Assembly (NCBI GenBank): GCA_963730935.1
Contig: CAVSTP010000003.1
Coordinates: 160,001-224,000, forward strand
DNA: 64,000 nt
Direction of reading: 5' to 3'
Source of the DNA: an uncultured Nitrospiraceae bacterium
GTDB taxonomy: Bacteria > Nitrospirota > Nitrospiria > Nitrospirales > Nitrospiraceae
Shown piece after piece: positions 4,301-20,554 of this stretch (positions within the stretch are counted from its first letter, which is position 1; each line of letters begins with the position of its first letter). A program made the position numbers and the translations under genes. The notes under the pieces were generated by a model. The model saw only the letters and a program-made list of their open reading frames with translations, had not been told where the DNA came from and did not search any database.

Positions 4301-4440
4301 AATCGCAACAGCCGCTTGCACGCGTCGTCGTCGGGGGGATGCTCACATCGGCGGCGTTGATCCTTCTCGTGCTTCCCATTCTCTACCGGCTGGCCTATCG
4401 ATGGAGCGAGAGCGTGCCGAAGGAACAGGAATCGCCCTGA
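1354..4440 (+). CDS. czcA: CusA/CzcA family heavy-metal efflux RND transporter
   Basis: 1028 aa; 'GAIDFGIIVD' TM4 motif, 'GGEFMPALEEG', 'RMRPVLMTSLAAAIGLIP', 'QQPLARVVVGG'. Confidence 0.93.
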   Translation: MLERVISFSLTQRLFVCLVGLGLMFGGLYAFHILDVVAYPDPSPPMIEVITQYPGWSAEQMERAITLPIEIALQGMPGLTDIRSLSIFGLSDIKVYFQFGTDYFRDRQEVLNRLQLITLPQNVQPAISPWSAIAEIYRYEVEGAGKSLTDLKTIQEWQIRREFKRVPGVIDVTTFGGTAKEFHVDLDPGRLISYNVTLDQVMDALSKSNTDVGGNYLTMGAQSFNVRGMGLMKSLDDIADTVVTEKDGTPIFVRHLGQTSVGHRVRLGKVGINDRDDVVEGVVLLQRGEQALPVLERVHKKVEELNNHRLSGGVAIKTFYDRTQLIHTTIETVVDILIAGVVLVSIILYIFLGHGRTALIVALTVPVALLFTFCIMVMHGQSANLISLGAIDFGIIVDSTLIMVESIFYHISHKRAQGLTVPMHVMRAAKEVGRPIFFATTIIVVAFMPLFTMTGVPGKIFAPMSLTYGLALTGALLMAFTLAPALCVLLLAGEVREHDTAVVEWIREKYMATLAWALDHEVIVIALAGGALAVAILAVPFIGGEFMPALEEGNIWMRATLPVDISFEQAAQLATDIRQVFRDVPEVIDVASQLGRPDDGTDPTSFFNAEFLVTLQPRSAWRALLKDKHALISEIEQELASFPGISFNFSQAIQDNVQEAMSGVKGENAVKLYGPDLRQLEALAMEIQRHMEKVRGVKDLGVLHLLGQPNLIIEVDRQECARYGLKVGDVNGVIQAAIGGQSVTQVYEGEKWFDLVVRFLPEYRRDNETIGQILVSTPDGARIPIKQLATITEQTGAFIIYRENNERYIPIKFSVRGRDLEGTVTDAQAVLAEHLSLPEGYHIEWHGEYDQLQDEKTRLASIVPVTLLLILFLVYLVLNSMRDALLVLIAVPFALVGGVLALALTRTHFSISAAVGFISLFGVAVQGALILVSRIRDLLLEGFDIRTAIMKSAEVRMRPVLMTSLAAAIGLIPAAVATGIGAQSQQPLARVVVGGMLTSAALILLVLPILYRLAYRWSESVPKEQESP

Positions 4441-5005
4441 CCAGGTACCGCAAAGGGCTTCCGGAGAAGAGGGCGTCGAACGGGTAACAGGTCACGAGAA
4501 TGAGCTCCTCGCTGTCGTCGGCCAGGCGGATCGCGTCGGTCCGGGCATCGACGATGGCCCTGTCGAGGACGCGGTAGCGCAGGCTGTGTCCGTCCGGTGT
4601 GTCGATCAGAATCTCGTCCATTTCCTTCAAGCGCCCCACGAACGCAAAATGCGTGTCCCGATGGCCGGTGAGCACGGTGGTACCGCCAGCGCCCGGTAAT
4701 GAACTGGATTCCGCAAACGCGGGGCCAAAGGCCAAGGTCCGGCCATACGCGCCATTCAACACGATCACATCGATCTGCTCTGAGGGCACACGCAGCCGGC
4801 CCACGGGCCAGGTATCGGCCCAGGGCCAAGGCTTGGCCTGCAAGTGTCCGGCGAGTGTCTGGGACCAGGCCCGTTGCAGGAGCACCTGCGCGAGCCTGGC
4901 CTTCGCATAGATCCACGATCCTTCCCCGATTTGCCACAGCCCGACGGCGAGGAAGCACACCGTCAGCATGATAAGCGGACGGGGAGTGGTCTGAACCGGG
5001 CTCAT
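4343..5005 (-). CDS. Sortase, marine-proteobacterial (class GN) type
   Basis: 'IYAKARLAQVLL', 'KPWPWADTWPV', catalytic His 'GHRDTHF', Cys 'LVTCYPF', Arg 'LRYLV'; ATG at 5005 overlaps the upstream stop (ATGA). Confidence 0.92.
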   Translation of the reverse strand: MSPVQTTPRPLIMLTVCFLAVGLWQIGEGSWIYAKARLAQVLLQRAWSQTLAGHLQAKPWPWADTWPVGRLRVPSEQIDVIVLNGAYGRTLAFGPAFAESSSLPGAGGTTVLTGHRDTHFAFVGRLKEMDEILIDTPDGHSLRYRVLDRAIVDARTDAIRLADDSEELILVTCYPFDALFSGSPLRYLVRAIPVPSARSRSIDRPAGREWEAREGSTPPM

Positions 5006-7116
5006 GCAATTCGGCATCGATGGCGCCACATCCAGAACGAGAGCACGAGCGCCATCACGCCGATCAGCATATGCCATGGCGCGTTCGTTGCCGTCCTGGG
5101 CAAACCAAAGAGGGCCTGGTAGTCCTGACCCTCCGGGAGATTGGTCTTCATTGCATGGGTGGTCAGCGACGCGTTGCTCGGCCTGATGGGCTCCGTATCC
5201 ACGGCAACCAGACTCGTGTAGGGGCTGACGAGGTGATGGGCCAGTGCAACCTCGATCACCGATTGCCGGATCGCTGCCTCGGCTCCCTCCGGGCTGTGGC
5301 GATCCATCAGCGACGCGATTTTCTGTCTGGCCCAATACCCAGACAGGCCGCCTCTGGATGGGCCGCCAGGCAGATCGATCGATTGTGTCCACGTTTTTGA
5401 ATTGAACAGACCGGTCAGGGTCACTGTTGAGGGAGCGGTGGATGTTCTGAAGGCGAGAACGACAGGCTCGCCTTCGTACAAATCGGGTATCCTCGGCGGA
5501 AACACCTCTGTGGTCGTCTCAAAGCCTCCTACCTGAATGTCCGTCAGCACGGGCCGCTCCAACTTCCTGAAGATCGCGTCCATCTGCGCTTTCACTTCGC
5601 TGGTGCTGCCGATGTGTGTGAAGGTGCCTCGCCCGAATTCCGCCGCCTTTCGCATGAAATGGCTGTTCGGCGCCGAACCGATCCCGATAGTAAACAATCG
5701 GCTCTGTCCCAATTGCGCCCGAATGACGCCGAACAGTTCCTCTTCGTTGCCCACCTGTCCGTCCGTCAAGAAGATTACTTGCCGCAGATGGGTCGCCGGA
5801 GGGAGACCTTTGAGCGCCATTTTCATGGCGGGAAGAATTTCCGTGCCTCCGTTGGCATGAAGCCGCTCGACATACCGGACGGCCTTGCCGAGAGTATCCG
5901 TTCTAACGGCCTGCGCCTCGGAGAACAATAAATGTGTGGTGCTGTTGAATTGGATCACGTTGAACCGGTCCTGCGAGGTGAGCCGACCGAGTGCAAGCAG
6001 GAGGGCCGCCTTGGCCTGTTCGATGGACGTGCCAGCCATCGAGCCGGATGTGTCGATGACGAAGATCGTTTCGCGCGGCAGCGTCGTCACCATCTCGTTC
6101 GATGCAGGGGGAGTGACCATCAAGAGGCCGTAGGTACTGTCGTGCTGCTGCTCGATATAGACGATGGCGGCCGGAAAAGATCCTTCGGCGGGCTGCCAGG
6201 TCAATTGAAAATCCCGGTTGGCCGGGACGTGATCCCGTCGGAGTGTGATATGCCGTCTGCCGTCCTGGTCAGGGATGATCAGGATTTCATGATAGGGCGA
6301 ATCGATTTTTCCCAAAGGAAAGCCGGCGGCAAGATCAACGGTCAGGCTCACCGGATTGATGGCGCCATGCGTGGGCTCTACGGGCGGGGTGATCCGTGAG
6401 GCATCGGTGACGCGGTCGGTATTGGGCGACCAGCCTGACCCCTGGAGTTCTTCCTCGATGACGACCGGTGTCCCCGGGATGTAGCGAGGACCCACGACCA
6501 TCGGGAAACGCAGGGAGAACACCCCCTGATCGTAGCGCACCGTTTCCTGATACTCGATTTCGACCGTGATCCGGTCCTGTGGGGCGATGTTGGCGATCGA
6601 GACAGTGAACACGTTCGGTCGCTCCTGTTCTACGAGGCTTGCCCGCGTGCCTTCCTGCTTCGCCTGCTCATAACGTCGCTTGGCCTCGGCACGCTCGCGG
6701 ATTTCTCCCGTGATCACTCGATCGCCCACCTTCATCCGCAGATGATCGACCGCGGCGCTGTCTGGAAGCGGAAACACATAGATACCCTCTGCCCAATCGT
6801 CCTTGACCCGGCTCGGGTTGATGAATTCCTGCGTGAGCGTCGTTCGGGCGATGATGCCGGTGATGGAGATGTTGACGTCGGTCTTCAACAGAGGGGCCGG
6901 AAGGTAACGGCCCCGCTCATGGGTCTTGAAGAGGAGACTCCCTTGCGTCACGTCCCTGAGCGTCATGCCGTTCTCATTGAGTGGAGGCTCGCCACAGGCG
7001 AGGAGCACCGGCAGGACCCCGAACCATGAGAGAATGACCGTCAGCAGCGTGAGCAGAACGGCTTGCGTCGTGCGTTTCCGGATCTGTTGCTGTGCTATCT
7101 CGTTGAACAGTGTCAT
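5002..7116 (-). CDS. Sortase target protein with VIT and vWA domains and a C-terminal LPRTAT sorting signal
   Basis: VIT ('EGIYVFPLP', 'EQERPNVF'); vWA MIDAS 'DTSGSM'; C-terminal LPRTAT + hydrophobic stretch + basic tail; start moved to ATG 7116 after SD GAGG. Confidence 0.92.
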   Translation of the reverse strand: MTLFNEIAQQQIRKRTTQAVLLTLLTVILSWFGVLPVLLACGEPPLNENGMTLRDVTQGSLLFKTHERGRYLPAPLLKTDVNISITGIIARTTLTQEFINPSRVKDDWAEGIYVFPLPDSAAVDHLRMKVGDRVITGEIRERAEAKRRYEQAKQEGTRASLVEQERPNVFTVSIANIAPQDRITVEIEYQETVRYDQGVFSLRFPMVVGPRYIPGTPVVIEEELQGSGWSPNTDRVTDASRITPPVEPTHGAINPVSLTVDLAAGFPLGKIDSPYHEILIIPDQDGRRHITLRRDHVPANRDFQLTWQPAEGSFPAAIVYIEQQHDSTYGLLMVTPPASNEMVTTLPRETIFVIDTSGSMAGTSIEQAKAALLLALGRLTSQDRFNVIQFNSTTHLLFSEAQAVRTDTLGKAVRYVERLHANGGTEILPAMKMALKGLPPATHLRQVIFLTDGQVGNEEELFGVIRAQLGQSRLFTIGIGSAPNSHFMRKAAEFGRGTFTHIGSTSEVKAQMDAIFRKLERPVLTDIQVGGFETTTEVFPPRIPDLYEGEPVVLAFRTSTAPSTVTLTGLFNSKTWTQSIDLPGGPSRGGLSGYWARQKIASLMDRHSPEGAEAAIRQSVIEVALAHHLVSPYTSLVAVDTEPIRPSNASLTTHAMKTNLPEGQDYQALFGLPRTATNAPWHMLIGVMALVLSFWMWRHRCRIA

Positions 7117-7201
7117 GCGTCCTCGTCTGATGGAGGTGAGGGTGGAGATGTGCAGCCGCGTCTGCACGAGACGACTCGTGCAGACGCGCGCATGAGTGTG
7201 G

Positions 7202-8014
7202 TCAGCTGCCGGAGGCCGGGTCGGCCGGCGCAGTCCCGTTGTCGGTTTCAGAGGTATTGGCCGAAGGCACGAGACTGTCGATGAGTGAGCCTTCTGCTTC
7301 GCTGTTGGGGCCAGCGTCGGCAGATGCCTGCGTTGCCTGCCTTGGATCAGGCGCCGAGGTGGTCATGACGACCGGTGCTCGCATGTGTTCTTCGCCAATG
7401 GGACGAATTTCCAGATGGACACGGCGGTTCATCTGGCGGCAGACGTCGCTCATATCGATGCAAAGCACACCCTCTTTTCCAAGACTGACGGTCTTGATTT
7501 GATGTTCCGCGACGCCCGCAGTGATCAATTCCGTCTTCACGGTTTCGGCCCGCTTGAGCCCGAGCTTCATGTTGTAGCTCGGTGATCCCTGTTGATCGGT
7601 GTAGCCCTGTACCAGGACTCCCAGGTTCCCATCCTGCTTGAGGATCGAGGCCTGCGCTTGCAGGAGCGTTCTCGCTTCATCGGTCAATCCCTTGCGGCCG
7701 ACCTCGAAATACAGGTCGGTATGAAGGATGCCAGACTTAGCGGAAGCCGCCGGGGCTTCCTCGATCTTCGACCGTGACACCGAAACCGGCGTGATCATGG
7801 GTTGGGAGGTCTTGAGCGCCTCGCTGACCTGCGAACCGTTCAATGGCTCGTGACCGGTGCCCTGTTCGGTTGACGAGTAATACCAAATAGCTCCGATGAC
7901 GGCGGCCAGGCTCACGATGAGCCCCGACACCACCAACACGTCTTTATCCTTCTTGGGCCCGGAGATGCTGGGAGCGATATTGCCGGATGTGATCTGTGAC
8001 GGACCTTTCTGCAT
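7202..8014 (-). CDS. Sortase-associated OmpA-like peptidoglycan-binding protein (PdsO-like)
   Basis: N-terminal TM helix; 'VQGYTD..GSPSYNMKLGLKRAETVK', 'MNRRVHL'; SD aaggagg. Confidence 0.85.
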   Translation of the reverse strand: MQKGPSQITSGNIAPSISGPKKDKDVLVVSGLIVSLAAVIGAIWYYSSTEQGTGHEPLNGSQVSEALKTSQPMITPVSVSRSKIEEAPAASAKSGILHTDLYFEVGRKGLTDEARTLLQAQASILKQDGNLGVLVQGYTDQQGSPSYNMKLGLKRAETVKTELITAGVAEHQIKTVSLGKEGVLCIDMSDVCRQMNRRVHLEIRPIGEEHMRAPVVMTTSAPDPRQATQASADAGPNSEAEGSLIDSLVPSANTSETDNGTAPADPASGS

Positions 8015-8145
8015 GATGAAATCCTCCTTGTCGGGCTACTCAATGGTGATTGCTTGACGGTCCTTTAGTTGTTTGAGCCGTTGGGACAGGCTGGCTTCAC
8101 CTCCTTTTCCGTCCCTGATCTGTCTCTTGTTTGACCGGGTGCTTG

Positions 8146-8162
8146 AGCAACCAGAGTGCCGA
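8146..8162 (-). promoter_or_regulatory. sigma54 (-24/-12) promoter of the sortase operon
   Basis: Minus strand reads TCGGCACTCTGGTTGCT, i.e. GGCAC-N5-TTGC with exact consensus spacing. Confidence 0.75.
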
Positions 8163-8199
8163 CGAAATTGAACGCCGCCGTTGACCTAAATACGAGATG

Positions 8200-8212
8200 A
8201 ATCAAGCGTTTA
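8200..8212 (+). promoter_or_regulatory. IHF binding site
   Basis: AATCAAGCGTTTA matches WATCAANNNNTTR; about 40 bp upstream of the sigma54 -24 element. Confidence 0.65.
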
Positions 8213-8238
8213 AGCGATTGGTGGTGAGGCAAAGTGCA

Positions 8239-8283
8239 TGCGGGGAAAGCGAGCCCAGCATGCCATGCGGGGATAGCCCCGCA
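8239..8283. promoter_or_regulatory. Candidate upstream activator (enhancer) sites
   Basis: Palindrome TGCGGGG-ATAG-CCCCGCA (8266-8283) plus a partial copy TGCGGGG-AAAG starting at 8239. Confidence 0.5.
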
Positions 8284-8541
8284 CAGAATGAGGGCAGGCA
8301 AGTCACCGTAGGGCTCGCGAGAGGCATGTCTCAAAGACCCTTGCTCGACACGAACAAAGAGCTTTGAAGGGCCATTGGTAGAAAACAGCTCATGGATACC
8401 TGCCGGACATTGACGTAGACTTGTCGGGATCGTTTCCGAACATCCTGATGTGTCTTCGTATCCAAAGCTGCACGAGCTTCATCCATAGCTATGACAACGG
8501 AGCACAGGTCGTGTCTTGCAATCGCGTCAGTGGAGGTCTTT

Positions 8542-9009
8542 ATGGCAAGAATTGTTCTCGGAGGGATTGCATGTGCCGCTGTGCTCATTGGGGCGCTTGG
8601 CCTAGAGAGTTCCGCTCATGCCCAGGCTGGTCTTGGAACATGGGTTCGACAGGCAGGTCCGCAAGCGTCCGGACAGATAACAATGACTGTTGAGACTTGT
8701 TGCGACGGTGGGCGACGGTTGACGTACCAGCTGGGCGACTCTGGTCATGTCATGATCGTCGAGTCGCCATTCGACGGTCGGGAGGTGCCCGTACTGCTCG
8801 ATGGAAAACCGAGCGGCGAAACCATGGCGATTAAGCGCCTGGACGACCATCATACATCTACGATCGTCAAGATGAACGGTAAGGAGTTTGGCACATCGAA
8901 GGCCACTCTTTCGCCTGACGGGAAAACGATCACGGTTGAAAATGACTTCACCGCGTCGGTTGGCGGCAACCCTGCCGGCAAGCGCACGGAAGTGTGGGTA
9001 AGGAAGTGA
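8542..9009 (+). CDS. Secreted hypothetical beta-rich protein
   Basis: SD ggagg then ATG 8542; signal peptide ending AHA-Q; 'LSPDGKTIT'. Confidence 0.7.
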   Translation: MARIVLGGIACAAVLIGALGLESSAHAQAGLGTWVRQAGPQASGQITMTVETCCDGGRRLTYQLGDSGHVMIVESPFDGREVPVLLDGKPSGETMAIKRLDDHHTSTIVKMNGKEFGTSKATLSPDGKTITVENDFTASVGGNPAGKRTEVWVRK

Positions 9010-9096
9010 CACGATCGTCATTCATGTGCTCACTGCCGGTGAATCTGCCGGGCAGGTTGTGACGAGTAATGCATGCCCGGCTCAAGGCAGCAACCC

Positions 9097-9642
9097 ATGA
9101 GTCTCATCTTCCCAATTCATGCCAAGCTTAAAGATGGCTCGCCGGTGCAGTTGGTGCTGGCCGGTGAGCGCGATATCGAACCGCTTCGAACGCTCTACCG
9201 GATCATCGTTGAAGAGGGGACGTCTTATCCCCACGACCGATTTCCCGATGACGACGGCTTCATGGACTATTGGTTTCGCGGCAAGACGACAGTTGCCGCA
9301 TATGCGCCTGACCGCGAGCAGGCATCGGCGATGGCCGGCGCGCTTTACTTGAAGCCAAACTGGCCAGGAAGGGCAAGGCAAGTGGCGAACGCCGGCTTTA
9401 TCGTCGCACCTGAATGGCGCAAGAAGGGGTTGGGCTGGCTCTTGGGCGCCACGATGTTGGAGTATGCGCGGCAATTGGGCTACCGCAGCGTGATCTTCAA
9501 CCTGGTCTTTTCGGAGAATGTGTGGGCCCGTCGCCTCTGGGAGCGGCTTGGCTTCAAAGAGCTGGGCGTGCTCCCCGGCGCGGTGCGGAAGAACGACGGC
9601 ACGTATCAGGATGCCGTGATCATGTTTCAGTCATTGCTGTAG
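9097..9642 (+). CDS. GNAT family N-acetyltransferase
   Basis: '[17 protein letters not shown]', '[18 protein letters not shown]'. Confidence 0.88.
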
Positions 9643-12277
9643 GGGCTGACCTCCCCGACCGTCTCTCCAGAAATTGTTTCTTCACCAGACGCTCGACCGA
9701 TGCGAAATGACGGTCGGGGAGATTTTTGAACCGTCGTTTGCATTCGGCCAAAGCCTCGTCGATGGATCGACACGGATCGATCACGCTCAGCAGGTGGTTG
9801 TAATAGTCGCTGAGTTTCAGTTCGACCGTTCGCACGTGAGAAGGATTTCCGGCGATCGCCACAGCTGCCTTGGCCTGGTCGCCGTGATGCTCGATCAGCG
9901 CTTGGAAGCACAGGCCCTTCAGGCGCTGGGTGACGGTGCTGCGGTCCCATCCCAGGATGTTGGCCGTGGCCTGCATGTCAAAGGCTTGTTGCCTTAGACA
10001 CTCCAACACGGCTTCGTCCCCGGCGGCATCAGGAAACGTGGACCGCTCGCCGTCGTCGCCGCTTAACGTCTCATCGAGCGAGAAGGCATGACGGGACAGG
10101 ATACTTCCGTCCGTGAGTGCAACGGCTCGCTCCAATACATTGCGGAGCTCCCGGACGTTTCCCGGCCATCGGTAGGCGCTCAGCAGACGCAGGGCGTCGG
10201 CGGACAGTTGAGGACGAGGCTTCCCCATTCGCTGGGCGATGTCGGCGAGGGCGGATTCGGCAATCACCGCGATGTCGCCGGTCCGCTCACGCAACGGCGG
10301 GAGCCGAAACACGAGTCCTTTCAGTCTGAAGTACAAATCTTCCCGGAACCATCCTTCGGACACGCCGCGCTGAAGATCCCGGTTGGTGGCAGCGACGATC
10401 CGGACATCGACGGTCGTCGGCGCCGTGGCACCCACCCGGTAGAAAGACTTTTCCTGGAGCACCCGAAGCAGTTTGCTTTGGTGATCCAGACGCAGATCGC
10501 CGATTTCATCCAGAAAAATGGTTCCGTGATTGGCGAGTTCGAAGTATCCCCTCCGGTCGGCCGTTGCTCCGGTAAAACTTCCCTTGATGTGGCCGAACAA
10601 CTCGCTTTCAAACAACTCGGGGGAAATCGCCGCCATATTGACCGCAACGAAGGCACGCCCGGCCCGGGGGCTGAGACGGTGGACGGCGCGGGCGAACAAC
10701 TCTTTTCCGGTGCCGGGCTCGCCCAGGAGGAGCACGGTCAACGGCGAGCCCGCTCCCTTCTTCAGGTCACGAAACATTCTGAGCAGAACGGAATGCTGTG
10801 TGATGATCCCTAACGCACGGCACTCATCCTTGACCCGCTCCAGTTCGGTGTCTGCGAGTGTGCTGGAGTCCGAACTGGCGGCACGAAGATCGGTCAACTG
10901 CCGTTCCATTTGCTCGAGTTGACGCCTGGCAGCCTGTTCCTGGGCTCTGATCTCGCCAATTTCCGACTGCAGCAAGACTGTGTCTCTGGCCAGCTGTTCT
11001 TGCTGCGCTGTCGATTGCGCCACCGCCGCCTTCGCGGCCTCCAAATCTTCTTCGAGCGCTTCGGCGCGGCTTTCGCGAAGCGTCAGCGTCTCTCGGATCG
11101 CGGCGGCGTCTTGTTGCACGCGCAACATGTCCTGTTCGAGCAGCACCATCCGCGGGCCGGCCGTCAGGTGAGTCCAGGCGACGGCCGCAACGACGACGAA
11201 ACCGGCGGCTGTCAATGGCAAGGGCAGCGGAAGGACCACATGGATGCCCCACAACACGGTACTCGTCAGGGCTACATAGAGCACAAGGACGCTCCCGGCA
11301 AAGACAAGGCCCCTCGATCCTGGGAAACGCAACAGTCCCCACCCGATGGTCGACGCCAGCAGCAGCGTGAGTCCGAGCGCCGCCCATCGGCCTGTGACGG
11401 CGATCTGATTGTTCATGAGCAAGCTATTCAGTAGATGGAGATGCGTCACGATGCCGGTCACGGACTGGCCTGTCGGAAGGAGCCACGGACCGTGACTGAC
11501 TTCGCTTGGAAGGAGGACGACGATCTTGCCGTTGAACCGGTCTTCGAGGTGCCGGCGGTCATGATGCTGCATCGCCTCCCAGACCGAGGACAGCGTGATC
11601 GTCGGCAGCGCCGAGAGCGACCCATCTCCCACGGGATTGAGCGTGACGGTTGAGATCCGATCCGAGAGGAGCGGTCGCTGAAAAACGAGCGGCTGTTGCC
11701 GATACAGATCGTAGAGAACGGCGCCGAATGCCGGCACCGGCTTTCCCTCGACTGCGGACAACAGCGGGATCCGTCGTGTCACCCGATCTGGCTGTGTGGA
11801 AACCAGGACGTGTCCCGTCAGGACTCCGCCGGTTTCAAGGGCGATCTCCGGGTCATGCACGAGCGCGACCGGACCGGCCGCGTGCAACGCTTCGATGAGC
11901 AGCGCATCGCTGGCCGCTCCGCCGAGCGACGAAGGGCTGGCATGGCCGAGGCGATGGTCGATCCCGATGGCCGACGCGCCAGCCTCATGGACCGCCGTGA
12001 TGAATTGCGCCAGGACGGCCCGGTCGAGTATCCCTCCGAAACGCTCTTCGCTATCCGGATCACGGACGACAATGCTCAACGCATCGCTGGTCGCAATCGA
12101 GGCTCGAACCCGCAGCCAGGTGTCATACAGAGCCCAGTCGAGAGCGGTGAAGGTGACGGGCGCGAAGTTCCACAGTCCCTTGGCGAGCACCGAGGCCAGG
12201 AGCCCGATCGTCAGAGCCTGTAAGAGGGGAACTGTGATGAACAGCCGCCAGAGTCTGGGCCAGGAGAGTGGAATCAT
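9620..12277 (-). CDS. Membrane-anchored CHASE2-like sensor fused to a sigma54-dependent AAA+ activator
   Basis: CHASE2-like N-terminus ('[17 protein letters not shown]', 'FNGKIVVL'), 3 TM helices, coiled coil, Walker A GEPGTGKE, '[15 protein letters not shown]', 'FLDEIGD', '[10 protein letters not shown]', HTH. Confidence 0.88.
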
Positions 12278-13518
12278 CGTCGTTCGCCTGTGACGAAGTC
12301 GGCTAAGAGGGCATTCGCCTCCTGCTTAGGAAGTCCCTTGAGCATCGCCTTCGCCCTGGGAAGATCCTGTTGCAGGCCAATTCCTCTTCCGTAAATGCGT
12401 GCCAATATGCGTTTGGCGGGAGCAAATCCGTCCGCCGCCGTGTGCTCAAAACAGGCGAGGATTGTCTTATCGTGAGGCGGCAGCACGTTGTCCCACCCAG
12501 TTTCATACAACCGTGCTAATTCGACCTGTGCCACCTCACTTAAGGCGTAGCCTTCCTTCAGCAGGGTAGGCACGGCGACGTCGCTACGACGGTCCTTCAG
12601 TAGTCTGGTGCCGATGGTTTCTCCGTCGTCGGCCGGGCTGTACTCGCGAAACTCCTCCCAGAGTTGACGGCGATACGCGAGAAAGGCGTCCTGGGCATCC
12701 TTGCGCTTGCGGTCCGGTTGATCCGTAGACAGCGCCTGCCGCCTGAGCTTGCTGAGGAGGTCGGCGGACGGTTGATACCCGTATTCAGCGGCTTTGGTCC
12801 ACCAAAACACCGCTTTGCCCAAATCCTTTTCGACGCCTTGGCCGCTCTTATAGGCGTTGCCCAGAAAAAACTGGGCCTGCTGCACGCCGCCCAATGCCGC
12901 CTCTTCCATGAGTTGAGCGGCTTCCTGTTCGTGTTTTGACAGCTTCAGTAATAACGCGAGGCGGTATCGTGCATCGGGGAAATAGGGTTGTAGCATCAGC
13001 GCCTGTCGATACGATTGCACAGCCGCCTGTAGATGGCCCAACGAGTAGTGGACACTCCCCAGACTATAATGGGCATCGGTGAAGCCGGGATCGAGCCTGA
13101 CCGCTTCCTGCAGCACGGACCTCGCGGCGCGCCAGTCCTGCTTGGCCATGAGGATGGTGCCCAGCTGCACATGCGCTTTGGCATCGTCGGGCTGCAGTTT
13201 GATGGCCACGCGGCATTCGTCCATGGCGGCATCCAGGTCTCCGATGCGGTACAACGCACGGGCCAGCGCGAGCCGATTGGCCGCATCGTCGGGAGCGATG
13301 CGGACAGTGCCACGTGCTTCACCGAGCGCCATCGCCCCATCGGTCTGGACGAGTGATGAAGGAAGAGAGGACGGATGCTCATCACCGACTGCTTCAGGCG
13401 GCGGAGGGGGGCTTTCGAGAGGTGCTTGCGGGGTGGCCGGATCTTCGGGCGCTTGAGCCAACGATGGGGAAACGCCGAACAGGCTGAGGACGGCCACCAC
13501 CAGTAATCGACGGAGCAT
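12274..13518 (-). CDS. Exported TPR/SEL1-repeat protein
   Basis: Signal peptide, about 4 TPRs, SEL1 '[26 protein letters not shown]'; stop overlaps the activator start. Confidence 0.85.
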
Positions 13519-17182: not shown

Positions 17183-17281
17183 ACCTCGCCCAGACCTCTG
17201 CCGAACCCGCCGCTCGCCTGAGGTAATCCGCAAGCCCGCTATGGTAGGATCAACCCATTCGTGTCGTGTGGAGGACCATCA

Positions 17282-19021
17282 ATGAGTGACCGCCGTATCC
17301 CGGATTCCCCTCAAGAGCCGAAACCCAAGAGCGAAGAGCCTGCGGGCAAGACCGGTTCCGACCCGCTCGAACTCATTGAGCAGTGCCTGGCGCTGTTTTC
17401 CGAAACCGATCCCCGTCAGAAGCTGCTCTACAAGCTGCGCCATGCGGTAATGCTGTCGCAAGCCGCCAATCAACAGCGGGAAGCCGAATTCAAAAAAGTC
17501 AGCGACGTGGTGGCCAAGCTCACAGCGCCCGCCAATCGCATCGGGATGTTGCTCGATATTCCCGGCGACGGTCTTGCGCATATTGTGGTGGGCGGCGCCG
17601 AATACTACGCCAATGTGGATCCCCGTGTGGCCGCCGGAGCTCTCAAGATCGGCACTCAGATTCTCGTGAACGAGGCCTATGCGGTCATCAAGACGCTGGA
17701 CTATGACCTGAACGGCCCCATCTTGAAGCTGACTGAAGCGATGGCCGACGGCCGGCTGCGGTTCGAACATGAGATGGGGCGTCAATCGTTAATTTTACGA
17801 CGGTCCACCGATCTTCTCGGCATGGAACTCAAACCCGGCGACGAACTGCGTATCGACCCCACCCAACGAATCGCCTTGGAGAAACTCGTCGATCGCAAAG
17901 CCACGAAGCATGTGCTCGACGAAGCGCCGAAGGTGACGTGGGAGCAGATTGGCGGGCAGTCGGAGGCCATCGCGGCCATTCGTAAGGCAATCGAGTATCC
18001 GCTGCTGCATGCCGCCACCTTTCAACAGTTCAAGTTCTCCCAACCCAAAGGGTTTCTCCTGTATGGACCACCCGGTTGCGGAAAAACGCTCATCGGTCAG
18101 GCGGCGGCCGCGAGCCTGTCTAAAGTGGTCAGCGAGTCGGGGCCGGAACCCGCGCAGAAAGGCGAAGGCCGTGCACCGATCACCGGCGGCGCATTTCTCC
18201 ATGTGAAGGGGCCGGAAATCCTCAATATGTGGCTGGGCGAGTCCGAACGGATGGTGCGCGATCTCTTCGCGGAGGCGAAAGCCAGGCGTCAGGACGGCGC
18301 GCTTCCGTTCATCTTTATCGACGAAGCCGAGTCCATCCTCGGCACCAGACGTGCCATGCGCTCGTTCAACATTTCCAATACGCTGGTGCCGATGTTCTGC
18401 AGCGAAATGGACGGCATCGAGTCGCTGCGGGACGTCGTCATTATCCTCGCGTCGAACAGGCCGGATCTGATCGATCCGGCGGTGCTGCGGCCCGGCCGGA
18501 TCGATCGAAAGATCAAGGTGGCACGGCCAAATCGAGAGGCCTCGACGGAAATCTTGAAGGTGTACCTGTCCGACGATTTGCCGCTCGATCCGGCCGTGCT
18601 GGCCGAGCGCGGCGGAGAACAAGGCAAGGCCATGGCTTCGCTGGCGCAAGAGGTGATCGATCGCATTTTCCGGAAGGCCGATGAGAATCGCTTGCTGTCC
18701 GTTCGGCTTCGAAGCGGGCAGCAGAAAGTGCTCTACCGCGGCGATCTGGTCAGCGGAGCGATCTTGGCGTCGATCGTCCAGCGTGCGAAGGAAAAAGCGA
18801 TCGACCGCACGATTCAAGGCGGCCAGCCGGCTGCACTGTTGGAGCAGGATCTCTTCGATGCCGTGACCGCGGAATTTCGAGAAGGGGAGATGCTCCCGCC
18901 TGATGATGCTGCAGAGGAATGGTTGAAACTCCTCGATCACCATCCCGAGCAGGTCATCGGCATTTCATCCTTCCGCCGAGGGCGGCAGACCGAAGAGCGG
19001 CTAGTCAATCAGATCATTTAG
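17282..19021 (+). CDS. arc: Proteasomal AAA+ ATPase (ARC/Mpa family)
   Basis: Coiled coil + OB-like interdomain; 'LYGPPGCGKT', 'KGPEILNMWLGESER', 'SNRPDLIDPAVLRPGRIDRKI'; SD ggagg. Confidence 0.93.
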   Translation: MSDRRIPDSPQEPKPKSEEPAGKTGSDPLELIEQCLALFSETDPRQKLLYKLRHAVMLSQAANQQREAEFKKVSDVVAKLTAPANRIGMLLDIPGDGLAHIVVGGAEYYANVDPRVAAGALKIGTQILVNEAYAVIKTLDYDLNGPILKLTEAMADGRLRFEHEMGRQSLILRRSTDLLGMELKPGDELRIDPTQRIALEKLVDRKATKHVLDEAPKVTWEQIGGQSEAIAAIRKAIEYPLLHAATFQQFKFSQPKGFLLYGPPGCGKTLIGQAAAASLSKVVSESGPEPAQKGEGRAPITGGAFLHVKGPEILNMWLGESERMVRDLFAEAKARRQDGALPFIFIDEAESILGTRRAMRSFNISNTLVPMFCSEMDGIESLRDVVIILASNRPDLIDPAVLRPGRIDRKIKVARPNREASTEILKVYLSDDLPLDPAVLAERGGEQGKAMASLAQEVIDRIFRKADENRLLSVRLRSGQQKVLYRGDLVSGAILASIVQRAKEKAIDRTIQGGQPAALLEQDLFDAVTAEFREGEMLPPDDAAEEWLKLLDHHPEQVIGISSFRRGRQTEERLVNQII

Positions 19022-19027
19022 ACCCCC

Positions 19028-20554
19028 ATGCGTTTGTTTGGCATTGAAACGGAATACGGCATCGCGCGCCATGATCGGGACGAGAGCGATCCGGTTGTGG
19101 AGTCCATGGAGTTGGTACGGGCCTATCTCATGGGCCCGTTCGAGCGGCGCTGGGATTACGGAGGAGAAGATCCTCACGAAGACGCCCGGGGCTTTCGCGT
19201 ATCTGGACTGGCTCAGGACAAAGAGGAAGACCTGTTCGCCCGCCTCGATGCGCATCGTCCATTTTCGTTCCACGAGATGAAAAGCGATCTGGTGCTTGCC
19301 AACGGGGCCCGTTTTTACAACGACCATACGCATCCCGAATACTCGACGCCGGAATGCCGCACCCTGAGACAGTTGGTGGCCCACGATCGTGCGGGGGAGC
19401 GCATCGTTCAGCAGGCGGCCGATCGCCGAAATGAGCAGCTTGGGGACACGGTCGTCCATCTCTACAAGAACAACACCGATTTTCACGGCCACAGCTATGG
19501 CTGCCACGACAATTATCTTGTCGCGCGCGCGATCCCGTTTCCCGGGCTTGTGCGCGGCCTCCTGCCGTTTCTTGCCAGCCGTCAGGTGATTGCCGGCGCA
19601 GGAAAGGTAGGCGTCGAAGCGCAGGAATCCGGTTTCGTTCCTGGTGCGTATCAGCTCTCCCAGCGCGCCGATTTCATGGAAACGGAGTTAAGCGTCGATA
19701 CGATGCACAACCGGCCTATCCTCAACACCCGAGATGAACCCCATGCAGACGCGAAGAAGTATCGCCGCCTCCATCTCATCCTGGGCGATGCGAACATGTG
19801 CGAGTACGCGACAGCCTTGAAAGTGGGGACTACACAGCTCGTCCTGGAGTTGATCGCCCGCGACCGAGCCCCGGTTCTGGAACTGGAGCAACCGGTGTCG
19901 GCGATCAAGCAAATTTCCCGGGACGCCGATCTGAAGGCTATGGTGAGGCTCAAGGACCGACGCCATCTTTCAGGGGTCGAGATTCAGGAATGTTACTGTG
20001 AGGCCGCCTGTCGGGAGTTGTCGGGCACTGATCCCGAGACGGATTGGATCCTGCACGAGTGGAGCGAAACGTTGCGGCTCCTCATGCAGGACCGCGGTCG
20101 TTTGGTCGGAAAACTCGATTGGGTGACGAAACAGTGGCTGCTGGAAAGGTTCGTGCGCGAGGAACAGATCGGTTGGGATGATCCCTGGCTGGCCAGCCTC
20201 GATTTGGAATATCACAATATCAATCCAGAGCGGGGTCTGCACCGAGGTCTCGAGGCGGAGGGAACAGTGTGGCGGCTGACGACAGAAGAGGACATACGGC
20301 GGGCCCTGTCTGCCGGGCCAGCGGACACGCGTGGAGGGTTGCGCGGTCTCTGCGTGAGGCGCTTTCCCGACCGGATCAGTCAGATGCAGTGGGAACGCAT
20401 CCGGTTCTCCGGCGGCTGGCGGCCATTGACGCTGGACATGGGAGATCTCTTCGAGCCGGCCGACGTGCAGATCTGCGCCGCCCTATTTGAGAACGCCGAT
20501 TCTCCGGCAGACGCGCTTGCCGCCTGGAAGACAAGAAAGGAAACATCGAGATGA
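19028..20554 (+). CDS. dop: Dop-like deamidase/deconjugase (PafA2 family)
   Basis: 'GIETEYG', Dop loop 'WDYGGEDPHEDARGF', 'NGARFYNDHTHPEYSTPE', 'NTRDEPHAD..KYRRLH'. Confidence 0.9.
   Translation: MRLFGIETEYGIARHDRDESDPVVESMELVRAYLMGPFERRWDYGGEDPHEDARGFRVSGLAQDKEEDLFARLDAHRPFSFHEMKSDLVLANGARFYNDHTHPEYSTPECRTLRQLVAHDRAGERIVQQAADRRNEQLGDTVVHLYKNNTDFHGHSYGCHDNYLVARAIPFPGLVRGLLPFLASRQVIAGAGKVGVEAQESGFVPGAYQLSQRADFMETELSVDTMHNRPILNTRDEPHADAKKYRRLHLILGDANMCEYATALKVGTTQLVLELIARDRAPVLELEQPVSAIKQISRDADLKAMVRLKDRRHLSGVEIQECYCEAACRELSGTDPETDWILHEWSETLRLLMQDRGRLVGKLDWVTKQWLLERFVREEQIGWDDPWLASLDLEYHNINPERGLHRGLEAEGTVWRLTTEEDIRRALSAGPADTRGGLRGLCVRRFPDRISQMQWERIRFSGGWRPLTLDMGDLFEPADVQICAALFENADSPADALAAWKTRKETSR

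Follow-up and report, generated by a model that had tools for sequence, protein, structure and literature searches.

The closest described counterpart of this locus lies in Shewanella oneidensis, where the available sections of two reports place PghK/PghR (SO2192-2193) with pdsO-SO2195-SO2196 and describe an equivalent operon that responds to peptidoglycan damage (PMC13712847; bioRxiv 10.1101/2023.05.05.539549). In those sections, the 2026 paper already records that target and sortase are syntenic in Nitrospira, leaves open the cleavage or anchoring of the target by the sortase in Shewanella, and presents the testing of sortase roles in two-membrane bacteria as only beginning (PMC13712847). 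The Nitrospiraceae locus, contained in a window of 64,000 nucleotides (the whole stretch of DNA analysed), shares with this system a TIGR03784 sortase, a TIGR03788 target, the gene order OmpA-domain protein, target, sortase, and an adjoining membrane-sensor regulator. Unlike Pds/Pgh, it has no PdsS, PdsR or PdsO above cut-off; its regulator is one polypeptide combining CHASE2 with a sigma54 AAA+ domain, without a kinase or receiver domain; its promoter is of the -24/-12 type with a predicted enhancer; and its first gene encodes a membrane-anchored OmpA-C protein that often occurs without the sortase pair.

ToxR/ToxS and VtrA/VtrC, as the accessible part of their source describes them, resemble the present system in that the transcription factor spans the membrane and has a periplasmic domain, and in that an exported partner is encoded by a gene overlapping its own, the heterodimer being a prediction here; the differences lie in an AAA+ sigma54 output with a Fis HTH and no CadC-like HTH, a CHASE2 sensor with four transmembrane (TM) helices, a TPR/Sel1 partner that is not lipocalin-like, and an upstream position of the partner gene (PMC9214523). 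In Sinorhizobium meliloti, according to the part of the source available, the CHASE2 receptor cyclases CyaD1, CyaD2 and CyaK need NsrA for signal perception, so that a CHASE2 sensor again stands with a separate envelope protein (a predicted partner here), whereas the present system is predicted to activate transcription directly and not through cAMP, and shows no beta-barrel receptor in the cassette (PMC13001267). The TPR-CHASE2 activator would work like a co-component system and is not a member of the ToxR/ToxS-VtrA/VtrC group. Activators of the NtrC/PspF type carry a Sigma54_activat AAA+ domain, a lid and a Fis-type HTH; their palindromic sites stand in tandem some 100-150 bp upstream, with an IHF site in between. 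The activator studied here has the same AAA+, lid, Fis-type HTH, tandem upstream sites and intervening IHF-like site, yet it is an integral membrane protein whose sensor is periplasmic and whose HTH is followed by roughly 95 aa of helical extension. The literature searched gave no description of a TPR/CHASE2-sigma54 sortase circuit, in agreement with the original prediction, which knew of none, and no defined ligand for CHASE2 domains.

The gene layout is as first predicted. A same-strand run on the minus strand encodes the OmpA-C-domain protein (7202..8014, 270 aa), the VIT-vWA sortase target (5002..7116, 704 aa) and a class GN sortase (4343..5005, 220 aa), the last two coupled by an ATGA overlap at 5002-5005. 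Upstream on the same strand stands a two-gene operon, in which an exported TPR/Sel1-repeat protein (12274..13518, 414 aa; Pfam TPR_11, TPR_2 and Sel1) with a signal-like N-terminal hydrophobic stretch at aa 5-23 (hydropathy) is joined by an ATGA overlap at 12274-12277 to a membrane-integrated sigma54 enhancer-binding protein (9620..12277, 885 aa; Pfam CHASE2-Sigma54_activat-HTH_8). The activator-ompA gap of 1.6 kb contains two plus-strand genes (8491..9642), for a 172-aa unknown protein (8491-9009) and a GNAT protein (9073-9642). Where relatives have a contiguous cassette, neither gene separates the activator from ompA, and both are outside the minimal cassette.

Profile searches identify the sortase (TIGR03784, 205.3 against a cut-off of 158.25 bits) and its target (TIGR03788, 780.1 against 551.65 bits). 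The sortase translation has His (GHRDT), Cys (LVTC) and Arg, which we take to be the catalytic residues, in the expected order; at the C-terminus of the target, LPRTAT is followed by a hydrophobic segment and then a basic tail, and the sorting signal LPxT[A/G]x is present in 31 distinct orthologue C-termini. The OmpA-like protein has a single N-terminal membrane anchor (aa 26-44, hydropathy) and two cysteines invariant in the orthologue alignment. Its proposed identity as PdsO had to be abandoned: it matches TIGR03789 only in the OmpA domain, at 50.8 against a cut-off of 152.2 bits, and eight other OmpA models outscore the PdsO model. No protein in the genome passes the PdsO cut-off (best 56 bits). 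The absence of a PdsR/PdsS pair, first noted for the window, extends to the whole 99.9%-complete genome, where no PdsS (TIGR03785, best 107.7 against 612.2 bits) and no PdsR (TIGR03787, best 145.2 against 335.7 bits) exceeds its cut-off; a pdsRS pair hidden elsewhere in the genome is thereby rejected.

The activator runs from TM1 through CHASE2 (PF05226, 77.6 against 26.3 bits), three TM helices, a linker some 110 aa long that may form a coiled coil, the AAA+ domain (PF00158, 213 bits, with Walker motifs) and a Fis-type HTH (HTH_8, 23.1 against 22 bits) to the C-terminal extension, which is helical and roughly 95 aa long. Hydropathy places the TM helices at 12-30, 298-316, 324-342 and 347-365, matching the rule for CHASE2 receptors, in which the domain is followed by three TM helices. 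Among 28 orthologues, the GAFTGA-type loop, here GSFTGA, is invariant and the HTH motif invariant or nearly so; three other sigma54 activators in the genome have the same loop. Structure models of the activator are confident. Fold searches of the C-terminal domain and of CHASE2 point to a new fold in neither case: the extension gave a best Z of 5.0 with no clear structural match, and the CHASE2 model, in which no ligand pocket was identified, matched no solved structure at E<=0.001.

The TPR/Sel1 protein is quite probably the periplasmic partner of the CHASE2 domain, judging from a complex model that scored 0.71 against 0.00 for the best of three controls, beyond a mark that 116 of 157 solved pairs and 2 of 215 mismatched pairs reach. 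At least 97% of contacts are shared between runs, the partner has a pLDDT of 89 or more, and the predicted TPR groove holds a CHASE2 segment at about aa 112-133. Conservation at the predicted interface does not significantly exceed that of the remaining residues (p 0.24 and 0.11). Because the activator has a predicted partner, the modelled design is closer to "co-component" than to the "one-component" first proposed.

The operon is preceded, as had been proposed, by a sigma54 -24/-12 promoter, GGCAC-N5-TTGCT (8146..8162, minus strand; predicted start near 8135). Its motif at 8147-8161 is the sole zero-mismatch match among 13 in the window. Since the window count with one mismatch is at chance level (13 seen, 10.5 expected), the call rests on conservation: the promoter is present in 23 of 25 orthologous upstream regions, the other two being cut short by contig ends. 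At 120 bp before the promoter lies the palindrome TGCGGGG-N4-CCCCGCA (8265..8284, no strand assigned), the first site of a predicted upstream activating sequence, and the upstream-region alignment adds a second, imperfect site repeating the CCCCGCA half-site (8238..8261, no strand assigned). Between palindrome and promoter is an IHF-like site (8200..8212, plus strand), exact here and partial in relatives when read against what we take to be the IHF consensus. The palindrome is unique in the genome, with a PWM score of 30.8 here and 15.0 for the next best site. A larger regulon in this genome was considered and rejected, as the scan gave no second strong site.

Across Nitrospirales the palindrome is kept, even where the activator gene is more than 1 Mb away, and its primary sequence is conserved over three families. 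Of 21 regex hits, 20 place it 117-121 bp from the promoter, and the last has 109 bp, shorter by about one helical turn. The palindrome-plus-promoter pattern occurs in 69 of 251 genomes (reversed control: 6 hits in 5 genomes), which is a lower bound because variant promoters escape the strict pattern: for genus g15 the score is 0 of 19, yet five opened g15 loci have the palindrome. The activator is present in 64 of the 69 pattern-positive genomes, leaving G073, G203, G231, G261 and G146 without a hit; the match in G146 looks like chance. Conversely, 92 genomes have the activator without the strict pattern, and those opened (most are unopened) mostly showed variant promoters. Near the activator, 35 of 36 ompA orthologues carry the palindrome, the exception being an N-gap, and all 19 additional sortase loci of a second family retain it. 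When the palindrome was searched for loosely in five genomes, counts were at background level and a site with a 3-nt spacer in G105 was missed.

The expected co-occurrence of activator and sortase module in relatives was found: 92 of 93 sortase genomes among the 251 have the activator, a count among kin, which are not independent, and with overlapping locus sets. In the lone exception the activator is divergent: its recognition helix and the upstream repeat both differ, and its CHASE2 contains LysM. The contiguous order TPR, activator, palindrome, ompA, target, sortase occurs in six genomes from four genera and two families (L085-L088, L097, L110), and in 12 genomes of the second family activator and sortase share one contig and lie more than 1 Mb apart. 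Near synteny alone proves little, because the whole neighbourhood, including HIT, HD and HtrA genes, is also syntenic in this genus. TPR, activator and ompA orthologues were all not found in G079 and G140 (single contigs) and in G095; G120 has the TPR gene but gave no hit for activator or ompA, and G035 has a TPR homologue with no CHASE2 hit. As no sortase is seen in 64 of the 156 genomes with the activator, the OmpA-like gene, not the sortase pair, is by genome comparison the constant target and first gene of the regulated operon, with ompA presence in the 251 genomes judged only by the promoter pattern and by the loci opened.

These comparisons make it very likely that the CHASE2 activator acts on the ompA-operon promoter. 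The main alternative for this link, in which the promoter is sigma54-dependent but another activator binds the palindrome and the CHASE2 protein is a neighbour with another target, appears quite improbable. It can draw on the 18 further sigma54-activator domains in the genome (19 in all, with rpoN present), on 18 GGCAC-N5-TTGCW sites genome-wide, on the breadth of synteny within the genus and on the five pattern-positive genomes without an activator hit, but it leaves unaccounted for a palindrome directly 3' of the activator gene in several genera and its co-occurrence with the activator in genus g14, where a hand count gave 38 genomes with both, 3 with the pattern only, 7 with the activator only and 17 with neither. 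It also sits poorly with replacement of the palindrome where the recognition helix differs: in G106 and G149, two genomes of one genus, a divergent activator with the helix HRDRV.LRVKG in place of the canonical one stands 5' of a sigma54-like promoter that itself follows a TGCCGTG/CACGGCA repeat, and no canonical palindrome is found at these loci. That the palindrome is instead an RNA hairpin, terminator or repeat element is highly improbable. Its perfect GC-rich stem with a 4-nt loop, often just 3' of the activator stop codon, would fit, and the joint change of both arms in five loci (GCGTGG...CCACGC) would also preserve a stem; against this stand the primary sequence kept in three families, a single genomic copy without a U-tract, extra direct-repeat half-sites, a fixed distance to the promoter, and persistence far from the activator gene.

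The reading that we prefer, a trans-membrane signalling cassette in which the TPR/CHASE2-sigma54 activator drives ompA, target and sortase through the palindrome, is probable as a whole. The exported TPR/Sel1 protein would bind CHASE2 of the membrane-embedded activator, and the signal would travel via the three TM helices and the long linker to the AAA+ ring. The HTH would bind the tandem sites while the DNA loops with the help of IHF, allowing sigma54 polymerase to open the promoter and transcribe ompA, target and sortase. OmpA-C proteins bind peptidoglycan, and this one may link the inner membrane to it; the sortase would process the VIT-vWA protein, and the envelope would be reinforced. What is regulated, going by the gene content, is likely a predicted cell-wall-binding OmpA-like protein, often together with the sortase and its one substrate. 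The original prediction that a TPR/SEL1 protein and a CHASE2 activator control the operon in place of PdsRS thus keeps its core, given the co-occurrence, the lack of pdsRS above cut-off, the palindrome, the contiguous cassettes, the helix and repeat swap and the complex model; its emphasis shifts from the sortase pair to the OmpA-like gene, with binding and activation inferred.

The chances are about even that peptidoglycan or envelope (cell-wall) stress is the signal. A different cue with the same wiring, the TPR protein reporting an exported protein, surface contact or biofilm and the vWA protein being an adhesin, is unlikely. It is favoured by the lack of a ligand pocket or solved CHASE2 match, by a trypsin-like protease gene that replaces the TPR gene upstream in paralogous loci, and by the Sinorhizobium cyclases, which in the available part of the source sense a protein signal through their partner NsrA (PMC13001267). 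Against it stand the OmpA-C protein as constant target, LysM inside CHASE2 of the divergent sister subfamily (Pfam 5e-14; 10 clusters; no LysM hit in the window's own activator), and envelope protection by the Shewanella target, as stated in the accessible sections (PMC13712847). Activation only after proteolytic release from the membrane, with the TPR protein shielding against cleavage, is distinctly unlikely. A hexameric AAA+ ring on four TM helices would be sterically demanding, the paralogues adjoin those proteases, and ToxS shields ToxR from proteolysis in the portion of the source available (PMC9214523); the contiguous cassettes, on the other hand, contain no protease gene, and the long linker could supply reach.

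As a minimal testable circuit, the locus offers a single activator, its one predicted partner, whose interface has been modelled, an enhancer with promoter, and a natural variant with another helix, another site and a LysM insert. A reporter derived from it would give a direct readout of CHASE2 signalling and would test whether a sigma54 activator can work while tethered to the membrane. Nitrospira is an important nitrifying group, and the locus predicts its main envelope-stress operon. More tentatively, the cassette may represent a kinase-free class of trans-envelope receptor, a TPR/Sel1 co-component with a CHASE2-sigma54 AAA+ fusion, that senses peptidoglycan (LysM replacing the input in one lineage), runs one-operon envelope repair across Nitrospirales and converges on the PghKR output; CHASE2 activators at large, which include Nitrospina and Bacteroidota-labelled members, would then be a general, unstudied sensor type.

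The activator is present in Nitrospina, where a metagenome scan gave nothing on gene context, and in cultured N. moscoviensis; homologue titles naming Nitrospira are the basis for the label "nitrifier-like". RNA evidence comprises 13 runs over all contigs with shares up to 0.21, and in the four examined cover is patchy, including the promoter region. The leader holds a conserved Shine-Dalgarno-like element, AAGGAGGTGA (8097..8106, minus strand), with no start codon after it, and ompA has a separate Shine-Dalgarno sequence at 8023-8029. Between ompA and the target gene, an 11-bp hairpin could limit read-through.

CHASE2-activator control of the window's sortase cassette appears to be real and is well supported by comparison among relatives. 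The output module belongs to a kind already described, and PMC13712847 reports it from Nitrospira. Literature searches, mostly at the level of titles and abstract openings, found no description of this CHASE2-sigma54/TPR sortase circuit, and a term search of PMC3162934 found neither CHASE nor transmembrane. The minus strand carries, in order, genes for a 414-aa TPR/Sel1 protein (13518-12274), the 885-aa CHASE2-AAA+-HTH activator (12277-9620) and, after a 1.6-kb interval, an OmpA-domain protein (ompA; 8014-7202, one membrane anchor at aa 26-44), a VIT-vWA target (7116-5002) and a sortase (5005-4343). ATGA overlaps between TPR/Sel1 and activator and between target and sortase are legible in the sequence. 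The module and upstream TPR/SEL1-CHASE2 operon of the original prediction are therefore present, with sortase and target above the curated cut-offs of TIGR03784 (205 vs 158 bits) and TIGR03788 (780 vs 552 bits). The proposed absence of PdsR/PdsS also held: neither exceeded its cut-off in the whole 99.9%-complete genome, in which rpoN was found. The locus thus shares its kind of output module with the proteobacterial dedicated sortase (Pds) system but fails on both PdsRS and PdsO, since the OmpA-domain protein scored 50.8 vs 152 bits against the PdsO model. Of the 80 loci of the closest titled homologues, 78 come from records titled Nitrospira, Nitrospiraceae or Nitrospirota; two bear just the title "uncultured bacterium".

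Judged from the window alone, the sigma54 motif before ompA is weak evidence. The promoter claimed there is conserved, being kept in 23 of 25 orthologous upstream regions; the remaining two are truncated by contig ends. At 8265-8284 the same alignment revealed a palindrome absent from the original prediction, TGCGGGG-N4-CCCCGCA, with a second, imperfect site at 8238-8261. A regular expression matched the palindrome in 21 of 23 regions, with one further region carrying a visible one-base variant and one being too short, and its spacing to the promoter was 117-121 bp in 20 regions and 109 bp in one. In a genome-wide weight-matrix scan the palindrome, itself part of the training set, scored 30.8 and the runner-up site 15.0. 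An IHF-like site lies between palindrome and promoter, an arrangement typical of sigma54 promoters that have a dedicated activator. Five relatives' loci (L215, L216, L225, L226, L228) show an identical change in both palindrome arms (GCGTGG...CCACGC) that retains the symmetry.

Because the genome holds 19 candidate sigma54 activators, the activator-promoter link was tested in four ways: by position, co-occurrence, persistence at distance and natural swap. TPR, activator, palindrome, promoter, ompA, target and sortase run uninterrupted in six genomes from four genera and two families (L085-L088, L097, L110), so the genes at 8491-9642 were probably inserted later between activator and ompA. Among 80 further loci, which partly overlap the earlier set, 36 extend to an ompA orthologue and 35 of these carry the palindrome, an N-gap accounting for the one that does not. 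The activator-ompA interval ranges from <0.4 kb to >9 kb (L045-L060, L089-L104), frequently holds a GNAT gene and looks like an insertion hotspot.

Across one set of 251 genomes, each at least 90% complete, the activator C-terminus matched in 156 and the sortase in 93. By hand tally from the lists, 92 genomes had both, one the sortase alone, 64 the activator alone and 94 neither, which bears out the predicted co-occurrence (92 of 93 sortase genomes). The strict palindrome-promoter pattern occurred in 69 genomes, 64 with and five without the activator; the reversed control gave six matches. No p-value is given, since kin are not independent. Five genomes were inspected one by one: G079, G140 and G095 had no orthologue-level matches for TPR, activator or ompA, G120 retained TPR alone, and in G105, where 550 kb separate activator and ompA, the palindrome is a variant and the promoter intact. 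In a second family the palindrome, judged by eye, is kept in 19 of 19 opened sortase loci and in L062 and L108; in 12 of these genomes activator and sortase lie on one contig but >1 Mb apart.

G106, the sole sortase genome without an activator match, carries a 27%-identical CHASE2-type activator (L211:3746-6595), with ompA, target and two tandem sortases immediately after it. A relative of this activator occurs in G149 (L231:5961-8804). In both genomes the activator contains a LysM insert, its recognition helix differs from that of the window's activator, a different repeat (TGCCGTG/CACGGCA) precedes a sigma54-like promoter, and the canonical palindrome was not found upstream. This matched change would link activator to upstream site, but is suggestive only, as both genomes belong to a single genus. 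Neither has a TPR gene directly upstream of the divergent activator; in G149 the ompA-like gene comes after a small ORF and the gene for a repeat-like protein of 318 aa.

Structural modelling supports binding of the TPR protein to the CHASE2 domain. With CHASE2 aa 35-296, TPR aa 63-410 and a 70-row alignment for each, the predicted complex scored 0.71 (best control 0.00), with at least 97% of contacts agreeing between runs and partner pLDDT of at least 89. Among solved pairs 116 of 157 reach the mark applied, against 2 of 215 mismatched pairs; for the alignments used, these counts are only rough. The modelled interface takes in the near-invariant GGAASDAL segment of CHASE2; taken together, interface residues showed no significant excess of conservation over other positions. 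A Foldseek search with the CHASE2 model matched no solved structure, which lowers the chance that the prediction reproduces a known complex. OmpA-C proteins bind peptidoglycan. There is roughly an even chance that the activator's signal is peptidoglycan or envelope stress, given three indirect clues: the target of regulation is an OmpA-C protein, a LysM domain lies within CHASE2 in the divergent subfamily (the window's activator has none), and the Shewanella pdsO-target-sortase operon answers peptidoglycan damage. PMC13712847 and bioRxiv 2023.05.05.539549 describe this induction via PghKR and envelope protection by the sortase target. The window's regulator works like ToxR/ToxS-type co-component systems and partner-dependent CHASE2 cyclases, as described in PMC9214523 and PMC13001267 respectively, but belongs to neither.

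The ompA-like gene is the constant predicted target of regulation. No sortase matched in 36 of the 69 pattern-positive genomes, and several opened loci retain ompA without target or sortase; assembly gaps presumably explain part of this. In the window, ompA and target-sortase are presumably transcribed together. Between ompA and target lies a perfect inverted repeat (7160-7185; 11-bp arms, 4-nt loop, no U-tract) that could determine how much ompA mRNA there is relative to that of the downstream genes. About 40 nt downstream of the promoter lies a strong Shine-Dalgarno-like element, AAGGAGGTGA (8097-8106, minus strand), with no start codon after it. It is conserved across three families; the genome has 10 copies of this 10-mer, four of them having a start codon no more than 12 nt away. 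By analogy with STAB-SD elements, it may stabilise the mRNA by binding ribosomes. The sortase 3' part (4343-4440) runs about 28 codons beyond the region aligning with relatives, possibly through stop-codon loss, and overlaps a convergent AcrB/CusA-family gene by 98 nt. Target or sortase genes broken in assemblies (L062:7279-10728, L097:6905-9196, L059:2359-4420) reflect frameshifts or sequencing errors.

The activator's HTH plus helical extension (9653-10015, minus strand) folds confidently (pLDDT 94), has no clear solved-structure match (best Z 5.0) and is a mark of this CHASE2-sigma54 activator family. Its profile found 293 cluster representatives at E<=0.001; among 22 scanned, all had Sigma54_activat and 21 CHASE2. 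Of ten clusters looked up, two bore taxon names, one being Nitrospina and the other a MAG labelled Bacteroidota. One homologue is already labelled in databases as [quoted passage not shown]. In Nitrospirales, paralogous activators (L116:370-9163, L118:12015-19797, L120:1414-5973, L121:11849-16231) are preceded by genes for trypsin-like proteases or by a CsgG/LpoB-like gene, and in L116 and L118 that palindrome, TGCGGGG-N4-CCCCGCA, recurs next to different envelope genes. In L116, an LPP20 lipoprotein operon containing the activator itself lies downstream of the palindrome and a sigma54-like promoter, making autoregulation possible, and a caspase-FGE-sulfatase gene follows. Elsewhere in the window (17261-20554, plus strand), an AAA ATPase gene and, after it, a gene starting MRLFGIETEYG presumably resemble ARC and Dop/PafA of the Pup-proteasome system.
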